From positions 18,446-82,445 of the IMG/VR virus record IMGVR_UViG_3300048838_001252: DNA of 64,000 bases, one strand, 5' to 3'. Made by a program: the position numbers and the translations under genes. Positions 46,521-59,774 of the stretch are shown here, in pieces. This DNA comes from a virus. Every line of letters begins with the position of its first letter. Position 1 is the stretch's first letter. The notes below the pieces were generated by a model, which saw only the letters and a list, made by a program, of their open reading frames with translations, was not told the DNA's origin and did not search any database.

Positions 46521-46595
46521 ATGAAAAATTTAGTGTACATAGTGCCCCAACCGCAACAACATCCACAGGATGGTGAATGGGGAAAGTACGCTTAA
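46521..46595 (+). CDS. Attenuator leader peptide 1, MKNLVYIVPQPQQHPQDGEWGKYA
   Basis: Run CCC CAA CCG CAA CAA CAT CCA CAG; lies between promoter and terminator. Confidence 0.8.
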   Translation: MKNLVYIVPQPQQHPQDGEWGKYA

Positions 46596-46622
46596 ATTTT
46601 TCGTGAAAGTTTAAGGTGAAGT

Positions 46623-46654
46623 AGACCCCATTCTGAAAAGAGTGGGGTTTTTTT
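46623..46654 (+). terminator. Attenuator terminator 1
   Basis: AGACCCCATTCT-gaaa-AGAGTGGGGTTT+T-run; left arm can pair instead with GAATGGGG at 46575-46582. Confidence 0.85.
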
Positions 46655-46703
46655 GTAACATTTTTTTCGTTCTTTCGTATAATGAGTTTTGAAATATATA
46701 AAA

Positions 46704-47135
46704 ATGAATAAGATTTGTACAAAATGTAAGAGTTCTTTGAATATTGATGAATTTCCCATTGTTAATGGAAAAACAAAAAAACGTAGTTCAATGTGTTTGA
46801 CGTGTAAAAGAGAGTATGATAGGGAATATCATAAGAAATATGCCGAAAAACGTAATGAACTAAAAAGAAAAACACAATTAAAGAATAGACTTAGAAATAG
46901 AAAGTTTATTGTTGATTATTTAAAAGAAAATCCGTGCGTTGATTGCGGGGAAAATGATTTTATTGTGCTTGAATTTGACCACAAATACGATAAAAAATTT
47001 AACCTTGCTGACGCAGCCAGACGTGGGTATTCTTTGAAAACAATAAAAAAAGAAATTGAAAAGTGTGATGTTGTTTGTGCCAATTGTCATAGACGCAGAA
47101 CAGCAAAACAATTTAATTATTATATCAGGGTGTGA
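46704..47135 (+). CDS. HNH endonuclease (zinc-binding)
   Basis: C..C, C.DCG, LEFDH, KC.VVCANCH. Confidence 0.85.
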   Translation: MNKICTKCKSSLNIDEFPIVNGKTKKRSSMCLTCKREYDREYHKKYAEKRNELKRKTQLKNRLRNRKFIVDYLKENPCVDCGENDFIVLEFDHKYDKKFNLADAARRGYSLKTIKKEIEKCDVVCANCHRRRTAKQFNYYIRV

Positions 47136-47878: not shown

Positions 47879-47924
47879 CAAAAAATTTTGAAAATTCAAT
47901 TTTTTTTCTACCTTTGTAAAAAAT

Positions 47925-51234: not shown

Positions 51235-51289
51235 AAACACGTTAATTATCAATCATTTATAAAAAAAATAAAAAATAATTTAAAAAAAG

Positions 51290-51320
51290 TTTGGAATTGT
51301 TGTAACATTTTATACCTTTG
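51290..51320 (+). promoter_or_regulatory. Bacteroidota housekeeping promoter for tRNA array 2
   Basis: TTTG-N19-TACCTTTG; overlapping TGTAAC-N17-CGTAT. Confidence 0.75.
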
Positions 51321-51361
51321 TAACGTATTTAGATAAAAACGATTTAATTATAAAAAAGAAA

Positions 51362-51457
51362 ATGAAAAATTTACTCGACATATTAATGGTAGCGGTAGCC
51401 TTGGAAGCAGACCTATTATGGGTGGCTGATGAGGATATGCTATGCGGAGTCGGGTAA
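51362..51457 (+). CDS. Attenuator leader peptide 2, MKNLLDILMVAVALEADLLWVADEDMLCGVG
   Basis: 23 of residues 4-27 are L/D/M/V/A/E/W; last codons carry the antiterminator strand. Confidence 0.8.
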   Translation: MKNLLDILMVAVALEADLLWVADEDMLCGVG

Positions 51458-51493
51458 TAAAAGTTTTTTTAATACCTCCTTTCTTTTAAAAAG

Positions 51494-51531
51494 AAAACCC
51501 GACTCCCCGAAAAAGTCGGGTTTTTTGTTTT
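51494..51531 (+). terminator. Attenuator terminator 2
   Basis: AAAACCCGACT/AGTCGGGTTTT+T-run; competing 10-bp pair GGAGTCGGGT(51446-55)/ACCCGACTCC(51497-506). Confidence 0.88.
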
Positions 51532-51561
51532 GGGGGTGGTTCTTTGACATGTTGGAAATTT

Positions 51562-51636
51562 GGTGCTGTAGTTCAGCTTGGTTAGAATGCCTGCCTGTCA
51601 CGCAGGAGGTCGTGGGTTCGAGTCCCATCAGCACCG
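51562..51636 (+). tRNA. tRNA-Asp(GTC)
   Basis: CCTGC-CTGTCAC-GCAGG, canonical. Confidence 0.92.
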
Positions 51637-51711
51637 CAAATGGTCTTCTCTGGAAGTGCACAACTATTCGTGATATCAAATAGTCTCGAATCCAGAGGTG
51701 ACCGCCACATT

Positions 51712-51789
51712 GGTCTTATGTGCTTGACTGGCGTGCAGGATTTGGGTTGTCGCCCCACAAAAACGAGGGTTCGAATCCCTCTAAGACCG
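51712..51789 (+). tRNA. tRNA-Asp(GTC), divergent
   Basis: GGTCTTA/TAAGACC-G, TGGG-TTGTCGC-CCCA; odd D arm. Confidence 0.6.
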
Positions 51790-51931
51790 CAATGCTTTGC
51801 TGTCGGCTCATACTTAGAGGGTATGGGGTACGAAGATACACGGGTTAGTGTAATAAACACGTCTGCTTAATAACCAGATAACTGTGACATGAAAAAGTCA
51901 TCATCCGTAACAAGTGGCAAAGTATTTCAAC

Positions 51932-52001
51932 GATTCCGTAGTGTAATGGTTAACATCCCGCACTGTCTATGCGGGGAAGGGGTTCGAGTCCCACGGGGTC
52001 G
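51932..52001 (+). tRNA. tRNA-Asp(GTC)
   Basis: CCGCA-CTGTCTA-TGCGG. Confidence 0.7.
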
Positions 52002-52016
52002 GCAAAATTTAAAACA

Positions 52017-52127
52017 ATGAAAAAGAAAGAAACATCTGGAATCTCCAGAAAAAAGGTTGAGTTTAAATTAATTTCAAAGGAAGAACTTCAGAAAAATAGA
52101 AGTAATGCCTACGAATATTTGGTTTAA
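52017..52127 (+). CDS. Small basic peptide (36 aa)
   Basis: MKKKETSGISRKKVEFKLISKEELQKNRSNAYEYLV after A-rich upstream sequence. Confidence 0.35.
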   Translation: MKKKETSGISRKKVEFKLISKEELQKNRSNAYEYLV

Positions 52128-52148
52128 GTCTGGAATTTCCAGACAATC

Positions 52149-52249
52149 TACCGTTTTAGCAGTAAAAAGTGTAATATATGATACTTTTAGTTAACATTTT
52201 AGCCAAAAGTACCGTTTTAACAGTAAAAAGTGCAATATATGATACTTTT
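52149..52249. repeat. Two 40-bp direct repeats, 61-bp period
   Basis: TACCGTTTTA(G/A)CAGTAAAAAGTG(T/C)AATATATGATACTTTT. Confidence 0.8.
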
Positions 52250-52413
52250 GCATGCAAATACATATAATTGCATAAAAACAATTAAATTCATATGCTTTTG
52301 CATATAAAAGATAGTGATGACCGATGTAAAAAACTGCACGAGAAACAGACACGAGTGGGTTAAGAGATGTTTTAATACTCACAAGGGTTGCCAGTACCCA
52401 AGGTCATCCAAAT

Positions 52414-52488
52414 GCTGCGGTTGGCAAATTAGGTTAAGCCACCAGACCTTCAATCTGGTCATTGCGGGTTCGATTCCCGTCCGCAGTA
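52414..52488 (+). tRNA. tRNA-Glu(TTC), C33 variant
   Basis: CCAGA-CCTTCAA-TCTGG. Confidence 0.7.
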
Positions 52489-52537
52489 CCCTTGGTCGTT
52501 TTCTGTACTTTCTCGTATTTATGGGAAAGTATAGATT

Positions 52538-53200
52538 ATGGCAAGAAAAGAAAAGAAGTATCATTTAATCTACAAGACCACGAATATCTTAACTGGTCGA
52601 TATTATTATGGAATGCATAGCACCGATAATCTCGATGATGGTTATTTGGGGTCAGGTAAGAGATTAAAATACTCAATTAATAAATATGGCAAGGATGTTC
52701 ATAAACGAGAAATTGTTGAATTTTGTTCAAATCGTGAATTATTGAATAACAAAGAAAAAGAAGTTATCACCCTCAATGAAATAGGAAAAAAAGATTGTAT
52801 GAATTTAATTGTTGGTGGTCAAGGTGGTGATGGTGGATTAAGCAATGTATCACCAGAAAAAATTCAAAACATTCGCAAAGGTGCATCAGATTTCATGAAC
52901 AGACTATGGAAAGACCCAAAATTTATTGAAGGTCATAAACAAAGGACAATAGAGATTTTAAAGAAAAGACATCAAAGGGGTGAGGTTAAATATGATACGT
53001 TCACAGGAAAAAAACATAGTGAGGAAACTAAGATAAAAATGAGTAATCTTAAAAGAGGAAAAGGTGTTGGTAATAATAATTCACAATTTGGTACTTGTTG
53101 GATAACAAAAAACGGTAATGATAAAAAAATAAAAAAAGAATACCTTCAAGAATATCTTTCTGAAGGTTGGATTAAGGGTAGATATGTTCGGGTCTTCTAA
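52538..53200 (+). CDS. GIY-YIG (Seg-like) homing endonuclease
   Basis: IYKTTN...YYYGMHS....DGYLGSG; GKKHSEETK; late motif at 52515. Confidence 0.85.
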   Translation: MARKEKKYHLIYKTTNILTGRYYYGMHSTDNLDDGYLGSGKRLKYSINKYGKDVHKREIVEFCSNRELLNNKEKEVITLNEIGKKDCMNLIVGGQGGDGGLSNVSPEKIQNIRKGASDFMNRLWKDPKFIEGHKQRTIEILKKRHQRGEVKYDTFTGKKHSEETKIKMSNLKRGKGVGNNNSQFGTCWITKNGNDKKIKKEYLQEYLSEGWIKGRYVRVF

Positions 53201-53257
53201 CGGTCAGGAATCTGGGTTTTCATCCCAGCAATCGGGGTTCGATTCCCCGTCCGAATA
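53186..53257 (+). tRNA. tRNA-Glu(TTC)
   Basis: CTGGG-TTTTCAT-CCCAG; overlaps endonuclease stop codon. Confidence 0.85.
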
Positions 53258-53267
53258 CAAATCAATC

Positions 53268-53341
53268 GCTTCCTTAACTCAGTCCGGGAGAGTGTTTGCT
53301 CGACATGCAAAAAGTCGTAGGTTCAAATCCTACAGGAAGTA
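53268..53341 (+). tRNA. tRNA-Val(GAC), C33 variant
   Basis: TTTGC-TCGACAT-GCAAA. Confidence 0.8.
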
Positions 53342-53463
53342 CAAAAAATGCCGTAAACTTGGGATAACATTCTCTTAAAAGGAAACCGGAGTAGCGAATA
53401 GCTTAAAGCGAAGGGGTTTCATAGTGAGCGGTAACAGCGAAAAGTTAGCCACTTAGTAGTTGT

Positions 53464-53532
53464 TGGGTGATAGTGTAGTGGTAGCACGCCCGTGTGAAAA
53501 CGGGTAGGTCGGGTTCGAGTCCCAACACCCCT
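53464..53532 (+). pseudogene. Degenerate tRNA (anticodon uncertain)
   Basis: D and T arms present; CCCGT-GTGAAA-ACGGG 6-nt loop; weak acceptor. Confidence 0.5.
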
Positions 53533-53536
53533 TAAT

Positions 53537-53611
53537 GCTTCCTTAACTCAGTTGGTTCAGAGTGCCACCCTTACAAGGTGGAAGTCGTAGGTTCGACCCC
53601 TACAGGAAGCA
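53537..53611 (+). tRNA. tRNA-Val(TAC)
   Basis: CCACC-CTTACAA-GGTGG. Confidence 0.9.
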
Positions 53612-53619
53612 CAACTAAT

Positions 53620-53700
53620 TGCAATGGTTCTTAACGGGTTCGATTCCCGCTCGTCAGAAGTAATTACCTGATGGGATGGTGTGAAATGGTACGACACAAA
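53620..53700 (+). ncRNA. Circularly permuted tRNA-like RNA (Y-RNA/YrlA-like topology)
   Basis: T arm, then loop-closed acceptor-like stem, then D arm. Confidence 0.5.
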
Positions 53701-53701
53701 T

Positions 53702-53776
53702 AGTCCCTTAGTTTAGTTGGTAAAAACGTCTGGCTTACATCCAGAAGATGCACTGGTTCGAATCCAGTAGGGACTA
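53702..53776 (+). tRNA. tRNA-Val(TAC)
   Basis: TCTGG-CTTACAT-CCAGA. Confidence 0.88.
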
Positions 53777-53788
53777 CAAAATAAATTT

Positions 53789-53870
53789 CTCGCAGTGTTG
53801 TAACTGGTAGCCAAGCTGGTCTAAGAAGCCAGTGTCGAAAGACGTGTGGGTTCGACTCCCACCTGCGAGA
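53789..53870 (+). tRNA. tRNA-Leu(AAG)
   Basis: CTGGT-CTAAGAA-GCCAG, GTC-GAAA-GAC variable arm, A73. Confidence 0.8.
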
Positions 53871-53876
53871 CGATAT

Positions 53877-53950
53877 GCGGACGTGCCGGAACTGGCATAC
53901 GGGTTAGTCTTAGAAACTAAATTTTGTGGGTTCGATTCCCACCGTCCGTA
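53877..53950 (+). tRNA. tRNA-Leu(TAG), short variable loop
   Basis: TTAGT-CTTAGAA-ACTAA. Confidence 0.85.
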
Positions 53951-54182
53951 CAAAGATGTTAATAAATAGTGTTGAAGGGCAGTAAGAGTGGTAATACGAC
54001 AAGTCCTAAGAACCACCACCAGTTTATTAACATTGAGAGAGGCGCATGACAGACTCAAGCAGGGGTGACTGCGTAGCCTGTACCGAGTGTTCTTAAAAGT
54101 GAAGGAGTAATACCTTCAAACACATTATTTCGAACTGCAAAGGGGTAATGGTTGAACTACTAATAAGGTACTACTCTCATTT

Positions 54183-54256
54183 GGGGTCGTGGCAAAATTG
54201 GCTAATGCACCTGCCTTGCACGCAGGGGATTGAGGGTTCGAGTCCCTTCGACTCCA
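54183..54256 (+). tRNA. tRNA-Ala(TGC)
   Basis: G3:U70, CCTGC-CTTGCAC-GCAGG. Confidence 0.92.
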
Positions 54257-54345
54257 CAAAAATGAAAGTGAATGGCACACTACCATTTAATGATTACCGA
54301 CAAGTTGAAAGAGTCTTGGGTTATAACAGCTTTCATTTTTACCAC

Positions 54346-54418
54346 GGGGCAGTGGTGACAAAGGCTAACACGATAGGTTTGCAACCTTTAGATACGGGTT
54401 CGATTCCCGTCTGCTCCA
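54346..54418 (+). tRNA. tRNA-Ala(TGC)
   Basis: G3:U70, AGG-TTTGCAA-CCT. Confidence 0.82.
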
Positions 54419-54498
54419 CAAAACTTGACAGACCCCCAAACTGTACATCGAAGTGGCGGTTTTAATACCCATGAAATGGCATGGAGTCAAGTTCTTTT

Positions 54499-54571
54499 GC
54501 CCCGTTGACGTAACTGGCAACCGTATCAGGCTTAAAATCTGAGTTTCTCAGTTCGAATCTGAGGCGGGGTA
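54499..54571 (+). tRNA. tRNA-Leu(TAA), short variable loop
   Basis: TCAGG-CTTAAAA-TCTGA. Confidence 0.82.
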
Positions 54572-54662
54572 CAAATTACCGGAAATTGCCGGATAGTAAT
54601 TAAGTACATCTGATTATCAATTAATTATGATTTTATTTTTTGCCGGATATTACCGGATATAC

Positions 54663-54735
54663 ACGTCCGTAGTTCAGTTGGTAGAATAGTGGTCTCCAAA
54701 ACCGAAGGTCGGGAGTTCGAGTCTCTCCGGGCGTG
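54663..54735 (+). tRNA. tRNA-Trp(CCA)
   Basis: GGT-CTCCAAA-ACC, G73. Confidence 0.88.
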
Positions 54736-54741
54736 CAATAT

Positions 54742-54813
54742 GTGTCTGTCATCTAATGGCTAAGATATCGGCTTCCAACCCCGATGATGAGGGTTCGACT
54801 CCTTCCAGACATG
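54742..54813 (+). tRNA. tRNA-Trp(CCA), divergent
   Basis: TCGGC-TTCCAAC-CCCGA with C:C at 31:39, G73. Confidence 0.65.
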
Positions 54814-55034
54814 CAAATTCGAAATGAAGTGGTGGTAAAAATCGCAGGTGTGTGTCAGACTCACTGTTCAAGTCCAAATTGAATACGAGACCACTGAGGG
54901 CAGAAGTGTACCCAAGAGCAATATCAGTTACTGGCACGACACCGCTTCAGAAATCCAGATAATTTTGTAACATTCCTTGTTTTTCTTCGTATAAATATCT
55001 ATTTTAGCGCAAGTATTTATGGTAAAATAAAACT

Positions 55035-58012: not shown

Positions 58013-58320
58013 CAACATACAATAAATTAGTACGGGATAAAATAGTTAAAATATTAAAGAAATCCAGCATTGGTTATAAGTACCATATCGCTAAAGATGA
58101 TACAGAATTTCTCGAAAAACTATATGAAAAACTTCAGGAAGAAATACAAGAATTTCGTGAAAAACCAAGTCTTGAAGAATTTGCAGATATACTGCAAGTA
58201 CTGGAAGCCATTGCAAAATTCAACGAGTTTGATTTAAATAAAATTAAAGAAGCAAAAGCAAATAAACTTCATAACAAAGGCGGTTTCAATAATAGAATTA
58301 TTTTGGAAGAAACGAAATAA
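58009..58320 (+). CDS. MazG-superfamily (PRA-PH-like) pyrophosphohydrolase
   Basis: YNKLVRDKI, KL.EE..EF, EEFADI..V, K...KGGF. Confidence 0.8.
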   Translation: MTTYNKLVRDKIVKILKKSSIGYKYHIAKDDTEFLEKLYEKLQEEIQEFREKPSLEEFADILQVLEAIAKFNEFDLNKIKEAKANKLHNKGGFNNRIILEETK

Positions 58321-58350
58321 TAACTATCTTTGTTCTGTGTTTTTTGAAAT

Positions 58351-58436
58351 GGCGGGATGTCGTAATTGGTAGCCGAGACAGACTTAAAATCTGTTGAACC
58401 TTTGTGTTCGTGTGGGTTCGAGTCCCATTCCCGCTA
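58351..58436 (+). tRNA. tRNA-Leu(TAA)
   Basis: ACAGA-CTTAAAA-TCTGT with long variable arm; promoter TTTG-N19-TATCTTTG upstream. Confidence 0.9.
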
Positions 58437-58444
58437 CTAAACAT

Positions 58445-58534
58445 TTGGTGGCATTGCTACAAATTAACAAAGGCGGGTTTGGTTTCCCAACATCGGTGAA
58501 AATCGGTAACATGAGTTCGAGTCTCACCACCGAA
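58445..58534 (+). pseudogene. Degenerate tRNA-like element
   Basis: TTGGTGG/CCACCGA acceptor and TGAG-TTCGAGT-CTCA T arm; anticodon arm unclear. Confidence 0.4.
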
Positions 58535-58821
58535 TGTTTTTAAATAAAAATGATATGAAAGAAATTAAAAAAGCAATACGGAATGAAATTCGTAAGGATT
58601 GTCGTGAGGAAGCTAAGAAAATTCTTGAACTTGGTGACGATAAAGACCGTGGAGATTTTATGAAATATCATGAAGAAGATAAGGGAAACATTTGTTGTCT
58701 TGTTCTGGACTTTGCAAAGAAAAAATTAATTGAAGCCGGAAAATGGGAGTTTAATGAGAATGATTGTTTTAACGACCAGTTTAGATTTTTGGAAGATGAA
58801 GACAGTAAAGAAACTGAATAA
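58534..58821 (+). CDS. Hypothetical protein
   Basis: ORF track. Confidence 0.5.
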   Translation: MFLNKNDMKEIKKAIRNEIRKDCREEAKKILELGDDKDRGDFMKYHEEDKGNICCLVLDFAKKKLIEAGKWEFNENDCFNDQFRFLEDEDSKETE

Positions 58822-58908
58822 TGACAATTGTTGTGGGAAACCACTAAAGGTTGTTGACCCCAGAAGGAAAAAAGATTTGGGGATTAAAAAAGTAATTAAG
58901 AAGAGAAC

Positions 58909-58982
58909 GCCCGGATGACGGAACTGGCATACGTATTAGATTCAAAACCTAAGTTTTGTGGGTTCGACTCCCACTCTGGGCA
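58909..58982 (+). tRNA. tRNA-Leu(CAA), short variable loop
   Basis: TTAG(A)-TTCAAAA-(C)CTAA; body close to Leu(TAG) at 53877. Confidence 0.82.
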
Positions 58983-59069
58983 CAAATTAGTATTTATATA
59001 AAACTGCATTTTATCATGAAAGAAAAATTTAAAGTCCTGTAACGCAACTCAAATGGTGCGTTCAGGAAA

Positions 59070-59372
59070 ATGGGAAACAAAAACATTGTAGATAATACCA
59101 CGAATCGTGGTGAATTCAACCGTGCTTACAAAAGATATCTTGAAGGCAAGGGAAAAATCAGTTGTACTTATTGCCGTTATCATCGTAACGAAAACGGTAA
59201 AGGTAGAGGATATTATGGTGGATATGAAAGAACCAACGGTCATGTCAAAATAATTTATCCAAACTGGAAACTTGTTTCAAGTAACCGTAAGCAATGGATG
59301 AAAAAATCGATGAAAGTCGTTGAAAAAACTGTGCGCTGGTCAGGCGCAAAATACATCGACATTACTTGGTAA
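59070..59372 (+). CDS. Basic hypothetical protein
   Basis: C..C..H, PNWK...NRKQW. Confidence 0.55.
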   Translation: MGNKNIVDNTTNRGEFNRAYKRYLEGKGKISCTYCRYHRNENGKGRGYYGGYERTNGHVKIIYPNWKLVSSNRKQWMKKSMKVVEKTVRWSGAKYIDITW

Positions 59373-59382
59373 TGTCGATTAT

Positions 59383-59455
59383 GGCGGGATAGCTTAGTTG
59401 GTAAAGCACTTGAGTCATAACCAAGAGACCGAGGGTTCGAGTCCCTCTCCCGCTA
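59383..59455 (+). tRNA. tRNA-Met(CAT), elongator (Ile2 not excluded)
   Basis: GGCGGGA/TCCCGCT-A, CTTG(A)-GTCATAA-(C)CAAG. Confidence 0.8.
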
Positions 59456-59460
59456 CAAAT

Positions 59461-59487
59461 AAAAAACCCATCGAATTCGATGGGTTT
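59461..59487. terminator. Terminator closing tRNA array 2
   Basis: AAACCCATCGAA-TTCGATGGGTTT. Confidence 0.7.
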
Positions 59488-59501
59488 AAATTTCCAACAT
59501 G

Positions 59502-59774
59502 TTATTTCTTCTTTTTGTTCAGCCATTCGAACAATCTGTACATGCCATAGGCAGCAGATATAAACAACCAGAGTCCAAGAATTGTTTCTGCACCGGGAAC
59601 TCCTTTTTCATATATCATTGAATATGCTGTAAATATCACAACATAACTAATGGTAATCATCCAATTATTTTTAAACCATTCTTTTACTGCTCCCCATTTA
59701 GGAAGTACCCATTTTTTAATGGCTACCCATTTAGCGAGAAGCCATGTTTTAATTTTTTCCCATATTTTTTTCAT
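59502..59774 (-). CDS. Small two-TM membrane protein (holin-like?)
   Basis: Amphipathic Trp/Lys N-terminus, two TM helices, basic C-terminus. Confidence 0.5.
   Translation of the reverse strand: MKKIWEKIKTWLLAKWVAIKKWVLPKWGAVKEWFKNNWMITISYVVIFTAYSMIYEKGVPGAETILGLWLFISAAYGMYRLFEWLNKKKK

Follow-up and report, generated by a model that had tools for sequence, protein, structure and literature searches.

Phage tRNA genes are usually viewed as passive supplements to codon usage or as spares against host defenses that cleave tRNAs, and to our knowledge little is known about their regulation. A 64-kb stretch of viral DNA, hereafter called the window (bases 18446 to 82445 of the 82-kb IMG/VR record IMGVR_UViG_3300048838_001252), raises the question of whether such genes can be placed under the control of decoding itself and, if so, what the controlling element would gauge. 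In front of the second tRNA array, at positions 51362-51531, the window carries a short leader open reading frame (ORF) followed by an intrinsic terminator, together called attenuator 2 here. An initial annotation, made from the letters of the DNA alone, had read this element as an attenuator in which the synonymous codons of the leader sample individual tRNA isoacceptors. The first part of this reading holds up. Judged from sequence comparison, attenuator 2 is probably a ribosome-mediated, multivalent leader-peptide transcription attenuator that gates the second tRNA array of the phage. The comparison of 15 homologous leaders indicates that selection maintains the RNA helices and the amino-acid family to which each codon belongs, and that the particular synonymous codon is not kept.

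The leader matches the array behind it

The tRNA region of the window (47.1-59.5 kb) holds 26 tRNA genes and one transfer-messenger RNA (tmRNA) gene, all on the plus strand. The tRNA genes between the terminator of attenuator 2 and a hairpin at 59464-59487, which closes the unit, serve seven amino acids, namely, Asp, Glu, Val, Leu, Ala, Trp, and Met, and are referred to as array 2. The leader ORF (leader 2; 51362-51457, plus strand) consists of 31 sense codons and a TAA stop codon. After the start Met, 24 of its 30 residues belong to the array-2 set, compared with a background of 0.363 in the phage proteins (binomial P = 1e-6), and this composition match of 0.80 ranks first among the 307 ATG-initiated ORFs of 20-45 codons in the window (mean, 0.31; standard deviation, 0.11). 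Pro, His, and Gln, which are the amino acids of array 1, are absent from the leader. The six residues outside the array set are found at codons 2, 3, and 7 and at three of the last four codons, which belong to the region 2 described below. Within codons 7-25, 18 of 19 codons encode one of the seven amino acids, suggesting that this is the sensing stretch, that is, the part of the leader where a stalled ribosome would leave region 2 unoccupied if it is taken to cover about 12 nucleotides (nt) ahead of the A site.

Mutually exclusive helices

The RNA structures were followed in relatives, which were found via a neighboring protein and two pattern scans. The unit is present at 21 loci (the window and 20 others), which carry 15 distinct leader ORFs; helix and column statistics are based on 16 aligned rows, and codon counts on the 15 distinct leaders.

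The intrinsic terminator (51494-51526, plus strand) has a stem of 11-12 bp and a run of six T residues and is composed of region 3 as the 5' arm (51494-51504), a loop (51505-51513), region 4 as the 3' arm (51514-51524), and the T-run (51521-51526). The terminator helix (3:4) has an energy of -14.6 kcal/mol, and the 12 pairs predicted by RNAalifold are kept in all 16 rows. The terminator ends 36 nt 5' of the tRNA-Asp gene (51562), and the spacer between the leader and the terminator also measures 36 nt.

The last three codons of the leader and its stop codon form region 2 (51446-51457, plus strand), which can pair with either region 1 or, as an antiterminator, region 3. The final codons had been described as a perfect 10-bp competitor of the terminator arm, and this is what we find, with 51446-51455 (the last codons and the first base of the stop codon) being fully complementary to 51497-51506 in the 5' arm of the terminator. 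The competitor duplex reaches -21.1 kcal/mol, against a mean of -11.3 kcal/mol for shuffled tails, and is equaled by 1 of 500 shuffles. The 2:3 helix has an energy of -17.2 kcal/mol, and 90.3% of its cells are paired across the 16 sequences, whereas sliding the partner strand gives 18-49%. Several pair types are seen only at the second pair from the outside of the 10-bp helix, which is the outermost of the nine counted and occurs as CG, UA, AU, and GC in seven rows and is unpaired in nine. In all 16 rows the 3' end of the leader duplicates the 3' arm of the terminator.

Region 1 (51371-51379, plus strand), which comprises codons 4-6, provides the 5' strand of the 1:2 helix, the anti-antiterminator. 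RNAalifold predicts nine pairs between 51371-51379 and 51449-51457 (-8.2 kcal/mol); all nine positions are paired in 16 of 16 rows, the only changes being three one-sided ones to G-U. The stop codon of leader 2 (51455-51457) lies inside region 2, and the same placement is seen in 14 of the 15 distinct leaders. The unguided RNAalifold prediction contains the terminator and an inner hairpin as well as the 1:2 helix. The inner hairpin, or hairpins, in the coding region (51389-51443, plus strand) comprises 12 predicted pairs, of which 4 show compensatory changes in one or more sequences, and might act as a pause hairpin. Folds of the whole leader forced into either state have energies of -51.0 and -50.3 kcal/mol, a difference of 0.7 kcal/mol, with the minimum-energy structure containing the 2:3 helix and the centroid containing the terminator.

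Attenuator 2 thus has the anatomical parts of a leader-peptide attenuator, namely, an enriched ORF, a terminator, an antiterminator, a sequestering region 1, and a stop codon in region 2. No Rfam family, including T-box, matches leader 2 at an E value of up to 1, and the only Rfam hit that overlaps 51362-51531 falls on the minus strand of the terminator (51452-51543), with a chance-level score of 19.6 bits where the cut-off is 100. Elsewhere in the window, the minus strand at 59458-59513 has a weak match to the Phe_leader family (26 bits; cut-off, 55).

Conservation of the leader in relatives

The pattern scan of metagenomes yielded 26 loci, of which 16 are family members. The other 10 (L018, L021, L026, L028, L030, L033, L034, L036, L037, and L040) are unrelated ORFs sharing only the pattern of the first nine codons. 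Of the 16, L029, which offers the first 41 bases only, was left out, and five loci with repeat leaders (L020, L024, L025, L031, and L035) were used for the arrays and not counted as distinct. A locus reached via the neighboring protein (L003) was excluded, as neither it nor the rest of its 64.8-kb record has a tRNA gene. A blastn search of GenBank phages in distant mode with 51250-51640 as the query matched 407 records, none over more than 80% of the query; among the 30 matches listed, only the tRNA-Asp part aligned, with no recognizable copy of the attenuator. In two wetland metatranscriptome runs of one study (5-6% of words), only tRNA-like parts were matched, with 85-99% likeness and unlike flanks, and nothing was matched over 51250-51546, which is uninformative either way.

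The first gene behind the terminator is tRNA-Asp at all 21 loci, and wherever the contig continues, the array follows the order Asp, Glu, Val, Leu, Ala, Leu, Trp, tmRNA, Leu, Leu, Met. The leader ORF is kept open in all 15 distinct homologues, and three of the four insertions or deletions among the aligned leaders are multiples of three. Codons 1-9 are almost invariant, synonymous sites included. The middle of the leader behaves differently: of the 112 cells in seven core columns, 104 encode Ala, Val, Asp, or Glu in shuffled order, and none encodes Gly, though its codons are one base away from those of all four. The composition of the core is kept and its order is not, as a codon gauge predicts and unlike what is expected of a folded peptide. 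One relative (L027) has a frame shift just before region 2 and reaches a stop five codons later, still beyond region 2. Its region-2 bases are kept despite the change of frame, indicating a constraint at the RNA level.

The same design in front of four arrays

A script run over the records of the window and its relatives found units of the same build before three further arrays. Unit 1 of the window (46521-46650, with the reading frame of leader 1 at 46521-46595) has a leader rich in Pro, Gln, and His and precedes Pro, His, and Gln tRNA genes. In the relatives, a Tyr- and Lys-rich unit precedes Tyr and Lys tRNA genes, and a unit rich in Thr, Ile, Asn, Ser, Arg, Gly, Phe, and Cys precedes Cys, Asn, Ile, Ser, Phe, Gly, Thr, Arg, and Ser genes. 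Units of these two types lie at 16534-16723 of L009, 7020-7197 of L010, 6602-6746 and 15098-15281 of L016, and 15335-15515 of L012 (reverse strand).

Between them, the sets of the four units account for all 20 amino acids. In a composition matrix of nine valid leader rows, which leaves out leader 1 of the window, each leader is enriched only for its own array (P values of 6e-4 to 1e-10), and the off-diagonal P values never fall below 0.3. The pairing between the leader tail and the 5' arm of the terminator beats shuffles in six of seven units (fraction, at most 0.012), the other being unit 3 of G001, for which no such pairing was found in the chosen 42-nt tail (fraction, 0.77).

Synonymous codons and isoacceptors

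Direct reading agrees with the codon list that had prompted the idea of isoacceptor sampling, comprising four Ala, two Asp, two Glu, three Val, and four Leu codon types. GCG, GCC, GCA, and GCT occur once each and GAC and GAT twice each, and they are accompanied by GAA, GAG, GTA (twice), GTG, GTC, TTA (three times), TTG, CTA (twice), and CTC. A leader that deliberately samples synonymous codons, gauging each isoacceptor separately, is nevertheless unlikely in our judgment, even though the window taken by itself speaks for it. Given the phage's own codon usage (51 long ORFs), 15 distinct Ala, Asp, Glu, Val, and Leu codons are observed where 10.8 are expected (P = 0.004), and 13 where 9.9 are expected when the codons locked in helices are set aside (P = 0.027). 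The chance of four Ala codons all differing is 0.019. The proposed match between the Leu codons and four Leu anticodons stands in part: ARAGORN finds AAG, TAG, TAA (twice), and CAA 3' of leader 2, and TTA, TTG, and CTA are the Watson-Crick cognates of TAA, CAA, and TAG, whereas CTC is not the Watson-Crick cognate of AAG. By the established rules of wobble, the reading of CTC by AAG would need inosine at position 34. A single relative (L019) offers a further point in favor, in that its codon 5 is no longer CTC and CTC is found at another position instead.

The relatives speak against it. At free positions, none of the 14 relatives has a codon diversity above chance (P = 0.087-0.915). All four Ala codons are used in only 1 of the 15 leaders, and 8 of the 15 use GCA alone. 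The initial annotation had proposed codon conservation across related phages as a check, with free synonymous drift as the outcome against it, and the comparison largely comes out that way, with synonymous and within-set changes at most core columns.

The particular codons of the window also have other explanations. Its GCG falls where the two copies of a 6-nt tandem duplication (51388-51399) meet; the duplication adds two codons (Val and Ala) and is absent from the other 15 rows. The rare codons of the window are explained by base pairing in conserved helices, with CTC being part of region 1, GTC and GGG of region 2, and GAG and a second GTC of the inner hairpin. Since the array has one anticodon type each for Asp, Glu, and Ala, the several codons of these amino acids gauge the same tRNA and cannot separate isoacceptors.

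Gains and losses of isoacceptor genes are likewise unmatched by the leader codons. A Val-GAC gene is found only in the window array, yet the window leader is one of a small number that have neither GTC nor GTT at free positions. Leu-CAG is encoded in the array of L014, whose leader has no CTG, and the leaders that do have CTG (L013 and L015) go with arrays without a CAG gene. CTC is kept in L013, L009, and L023, whose arrays have neither an AAG nor a GAG gene, and there is no association between TTG and Leu-CAA among the leaders and arrays. The sampling of individual isoacceptors by synonymous codons is thus unsupported, and the synonymous variety of the window leader is best explained by RNA-helix constraints, the 6-nt duplication, and drift, rather than by design.

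The drift is not wholly free, as T-ending codons are under-used across the leader family. CTT is observed 0 times against 15.7 expected, GCT 2 against 13.1, GTT 7 against 23.7, and ATT 0 against 11.3, and CTA is in excess (18 against 4.8 expected), as are GTC, GAG, and ATA. A-ending codons, which are cognate to the U34 tRNAs of the arrays, are favored, and this preference counts on the side of isoacceptor sampling.

Flanking elements, tRNA genes, and tmRNA

A promoter-like two-block site (51290-51320, plus strand) is located about 40 nt 5' of the start codon of leader 2 and consists of a -33 block, 19 nt, and a -7 block. It was assigned by a consensus which we take to be of the Bacteroidota type. 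The plus strand of the window has seven full matches to this pattern, including 51290-51320 and one 5' of leader 1 (46447), and there is no full match between terminator 2 and tRNA-Asp. The window and the relative L002 hardly differ over bases 51302-51330. Two internal full matches were observed, one at 47887-47916 before tRNA-Gln (47925) and one at 58302-58332 before tRNA-Leu (58351).

The spacer (51458-51493, plus strand) contains a conserved pyrimidine-rich block kept in 15 of 16 rows and absent in L038. This block can pair with a G-rich stretch after the T-run (51527-51538), which would give an outer helix enclosing the terminator in read-through transcripts. A duplex of 6-10 bp is possible in most of the 16 rows, with a shifting register and shuffle fractions of 0.01-0.46, and the helix may be a site of processing. 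An 18-nt block (51539-51556, plus strand) separates the terminator from the first tRNA gene, and its columns are invariant or at least 90% conserved in the 16 rows. The block is retained even where other DNA is inserted behind it, and its position does not match a promoter spacing.

CheckV estimates a completeness of 27% for the 82-kb record, so the phage, which is large and uncultured, is represented here by a fragment. The proximal tRNA genes of array 2 (51562-54814, plus strand) comprise three Asp, two Glu, and three Val genes, one odd tRNA-like gene, Leu-AAG, Leu-TAG, two Ala genes, Leu-TAA, and two Trp genes. The distal genes (58351-59456, plus strand) are Leu-TAA, Leu-CAA, and a tRNA with the anticodon CAT, called Met. 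This last tRNA (59383-59456) lacks initiator features as we know them, and elongator Met and a lysidine-type Ile2 are not separable from sequence. The ATA (Ile) codon 7, which is invariant in all 15 leaders, would fit an Ile2-type tRNA with this anticodon.

The tmRNA gene of the phage (57196-57559, plus strand; 107 bits) is on the same strand as attenuator 2, and co-transcription with array 2 via attenuator 2 is suggested on the one basis that the terminator scan found no strong plus-strand terminator between them. In the relatives, the tmRNA gene is found by ARAGORN at the same place of the array in 12 of the 14 loci with arrays running past it; none is found in L023. If the tmRNA is co-transcribed, ribosome stalling would induce a rescue RNA together with the tRNAs.

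None of the genes behind terminator 2 was recognized as serving the biosynthesis or charging of the sensed amino acids; they are tRNA genes, the tmRNA gene, and small ORFs without a Pfam match above the cut-off. A Pfam search with ten ORFs of both arrays gave sub-threshold matches only and no tRNA-repair enzyme. One ORF of array 2 (52538-53200) has a weak match resembling GIY-YIG/NUMOD3 homing endonucleases, with a Pfam score below the cut-off. The ORF at 46689-47135, between attenuator 1 and its first tRNA, has a zinc-ribbon or HNH look and resembles homing endonucleases, and in L002 the first tRNA is directly behind attenuator 1.

Proposed mechanism and alternatives

From the observed anatomy, its conservation, and the match between composition and array, we infer that the leader is translated, that stalling decides on read-through, and in which direction the control runs. 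Transcription would start near 51320 at the host-type promoter, and a ribosome would translate the 31-codon leader. With fast decoding, the ribosome would reach the stop codon in region 2 and mask it, so that the terminator forms and the polymerase stops before tRNA-Asp. If any of the charged Asp, Glu, Val, Leu, Ala, Trp, or Met tRNAs is short, the ribosome would stall in codons 7-25 and leave region 2 free to pair with the 5' arm of the terminator (10 bp), allowing transcription into the Asp to Trp tRNA genes and probably also as far as the tmRNA and the distal Leu and Met genes. In an untranslated leader, region 1 (codons 4-6) would hold region 2, and termination would prevail. The switch would thus be an OR-type gauge of decoding speed by amino-acid family, with its output matched to its input.

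The attenuator proposed in the initial annotation is supported by the mutually exclusive helices, the 15 homologues, and the four parallel units, and the suggested OR gate over seven amino acids agrees with the anatomy and the comparison, as the leader holds codons for all seven. If the proposal is correct, it would provide direct negative feedback on decoding speed, with the tRNA set, and perhaps the tmRNA, being made only when the ribosomes are short of it.

Several observations weigh against this interpretation. Five of the nine counted 2:3 pairs never vary, which makes the covariation thin, so that the 2:3 helix is supported more by conservation and design than by covariation. Region 1 is upstream of most sensing codons, and a ribosome stalled beyond about codon 10 would leave it uncovered, in which case the 1:2 helix might still form. 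Several amino acids have few codons in the leader (one for Trp and two for Glu), making its sensitivity to each uncertain. In the core columns, 8 of 112 cells fall outside the array set (Asn, Thr, Ile, and Ser). According to ARAGORN only, the array of L042 has no Val or Trp gene and that of L027 no Trp gene, and their leaders keep those codons. The promoter-like sites at 58302 and, in array 1, at 47887 might let some genes bypass the switches, and the former makes the control of the distal Leu and Met genes by the attenuator less sure. Finally, codon choice in the leaders is not neutral, which may point to some codon-level tuning; we regard the avoidance of T-ending codons as a lead only, because the cells share ancestry and partly sit in helices.

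A wider reading, which we put forward tentatively and consider rather doubtful, builds on this lead. Leader 2 would be one channel of a four-channel sensor of decoding demand for all 20 amino acids, partitioning the whole tRNA set of the phage and also switching on the tmRNA, with codon choice tuned to the A-ending codons of the phage-supplied U34 tRNAs and away from the T-ending codons of host-type G34 tRNAs. If this were true, the gauge would report exactly those isoacceptors that the array can refill, for example, after the action of host anticodon nucleases or shut-off, and stalled ribosomes calling for tRNAs would also call for their own rescue.

An RNA switch sensed by a protein, an uncharged tRNA, or another ligand, with the ORF being incidental, has a small chance of being correct. 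Such a switch would account for the very high nucleotide conservation of codons 1-9 (synonymous sites too), for the conservation of region 2 in any frame, and for the conserved blocks in the spacer and behind the terminator. It does not account for an ORF that is open in every distinct homologue and has mostly in-frame insertions or deletions, nor for a core that varies and yet stays within the amino acids of the array in nearly all cells, where a sensor made of RNA only predicts otherwise. Four different leaders fit four different arrays, and the Rfam search found neither a T-box nor another family on the leader at an E value of up to 1.

A hairpin that merely ends the upstream unit, with the ORF being a chance frame or a small acidic-hydrophobic peptide with its own function, is very improbable: AT-rich phage DNA commonly contains short ORFs and terminators (19 terminator sites are scored in 14.5 kb, against 7.9 in shuffles) and the N-terminal third of the peptide is conserved, but the leader has a promoter-like site on its 5' side with no full match between the terminator and tRNA-Asp, its 3' end repeats the 3' arm of the terminator in every row, the order of its core residues is not conserved while their composition is, and it ranks first for its composition match and shares its design with the units at the other arrays.

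Comparison with known systems

In a full-text search of the openly accessible literature on leader-peptide or attenuation control of tRNA genes, tRNA arrays, and phages, we found no published case, and the design of attenuator 2, with a leader peptide controlling tRNA genes, is unpublished as far as our searches reach. Control of the array by an attenuator, if true, would carry a mechanism that textbooks describe for amino-acid supply over to the translation apparatus itself. It would also offer a compact natural sensor of tRNA availability and would open the purpose of phage tRNA arrays to simple reporter tests.

The closest known designs are multivalent leaders of enterobacteria, of which ilvGMEDA has Ile, Leu, and Val codons and thr has Thr and Ile codons. 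Attenuator 2 shares with them the enrichment of codons for several amino acids, the mutually exclusive 1:2, 2:3, and 3:4 helices, and the terminator, and a lack of any one of the amino acids should relieve termination. It differs in preceding phage tRNA and tmRNA genes instead of biosynthetic enzymes, in representing seven amino acids, and in having region 1 at codons 4-6, on the 5' side of most sensing codons. Its sequence, as judged by Rfam, is not similar to theirs.

The trpL, hisL, and leuL attenuators respond to a single amino acid, and pheST is an operon for an aminoacyl-tRNA synthetase under leader control. Attenuator 2 has the same four-region logic, including a stop codon at which a ribosome ending translation would cover region 2, and pheST is a case of the same device controlling a gene of the translation apparatus. 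These leaders have runs of one codon type (two to seven), whereas attenuator 2 interleaves single codons of many types. Unlike in these systems, the output of attenuator 2 would be tRNA itself, closing a direct feedback loop on decoding.

T-box riboswitches bind uncharged tRNA directly and need no translation. Attenuator 2 resembles them in a choice between antiterminator and terminator that would answer tRNA charging and in its association with genes of the translation apparatus, and it differs in that a conserved ORF carries the specificity and that no T-box match is found.

Another tRNA array with conditional expression is known from Anabaena sp. PCC 7120, whose long array (the trn operon) is described as supernumerary, unexpressed under normal growth, and inducible by impaired translation (PMC8421152, PMC10272220). 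Its control is attributed to a protein repressor, TrcR (PMC10272220), and words beginning with "attenuat," "leader," or "terminator" do not occur in the text available for PMC8421152. As far as these texts go, the Anabaena array and array 2 can be compared as tRNA arrays of an inducible type, the former being non-phage and under TrcR, and the latter probably being gated by the leader-peptide attenuator described here.

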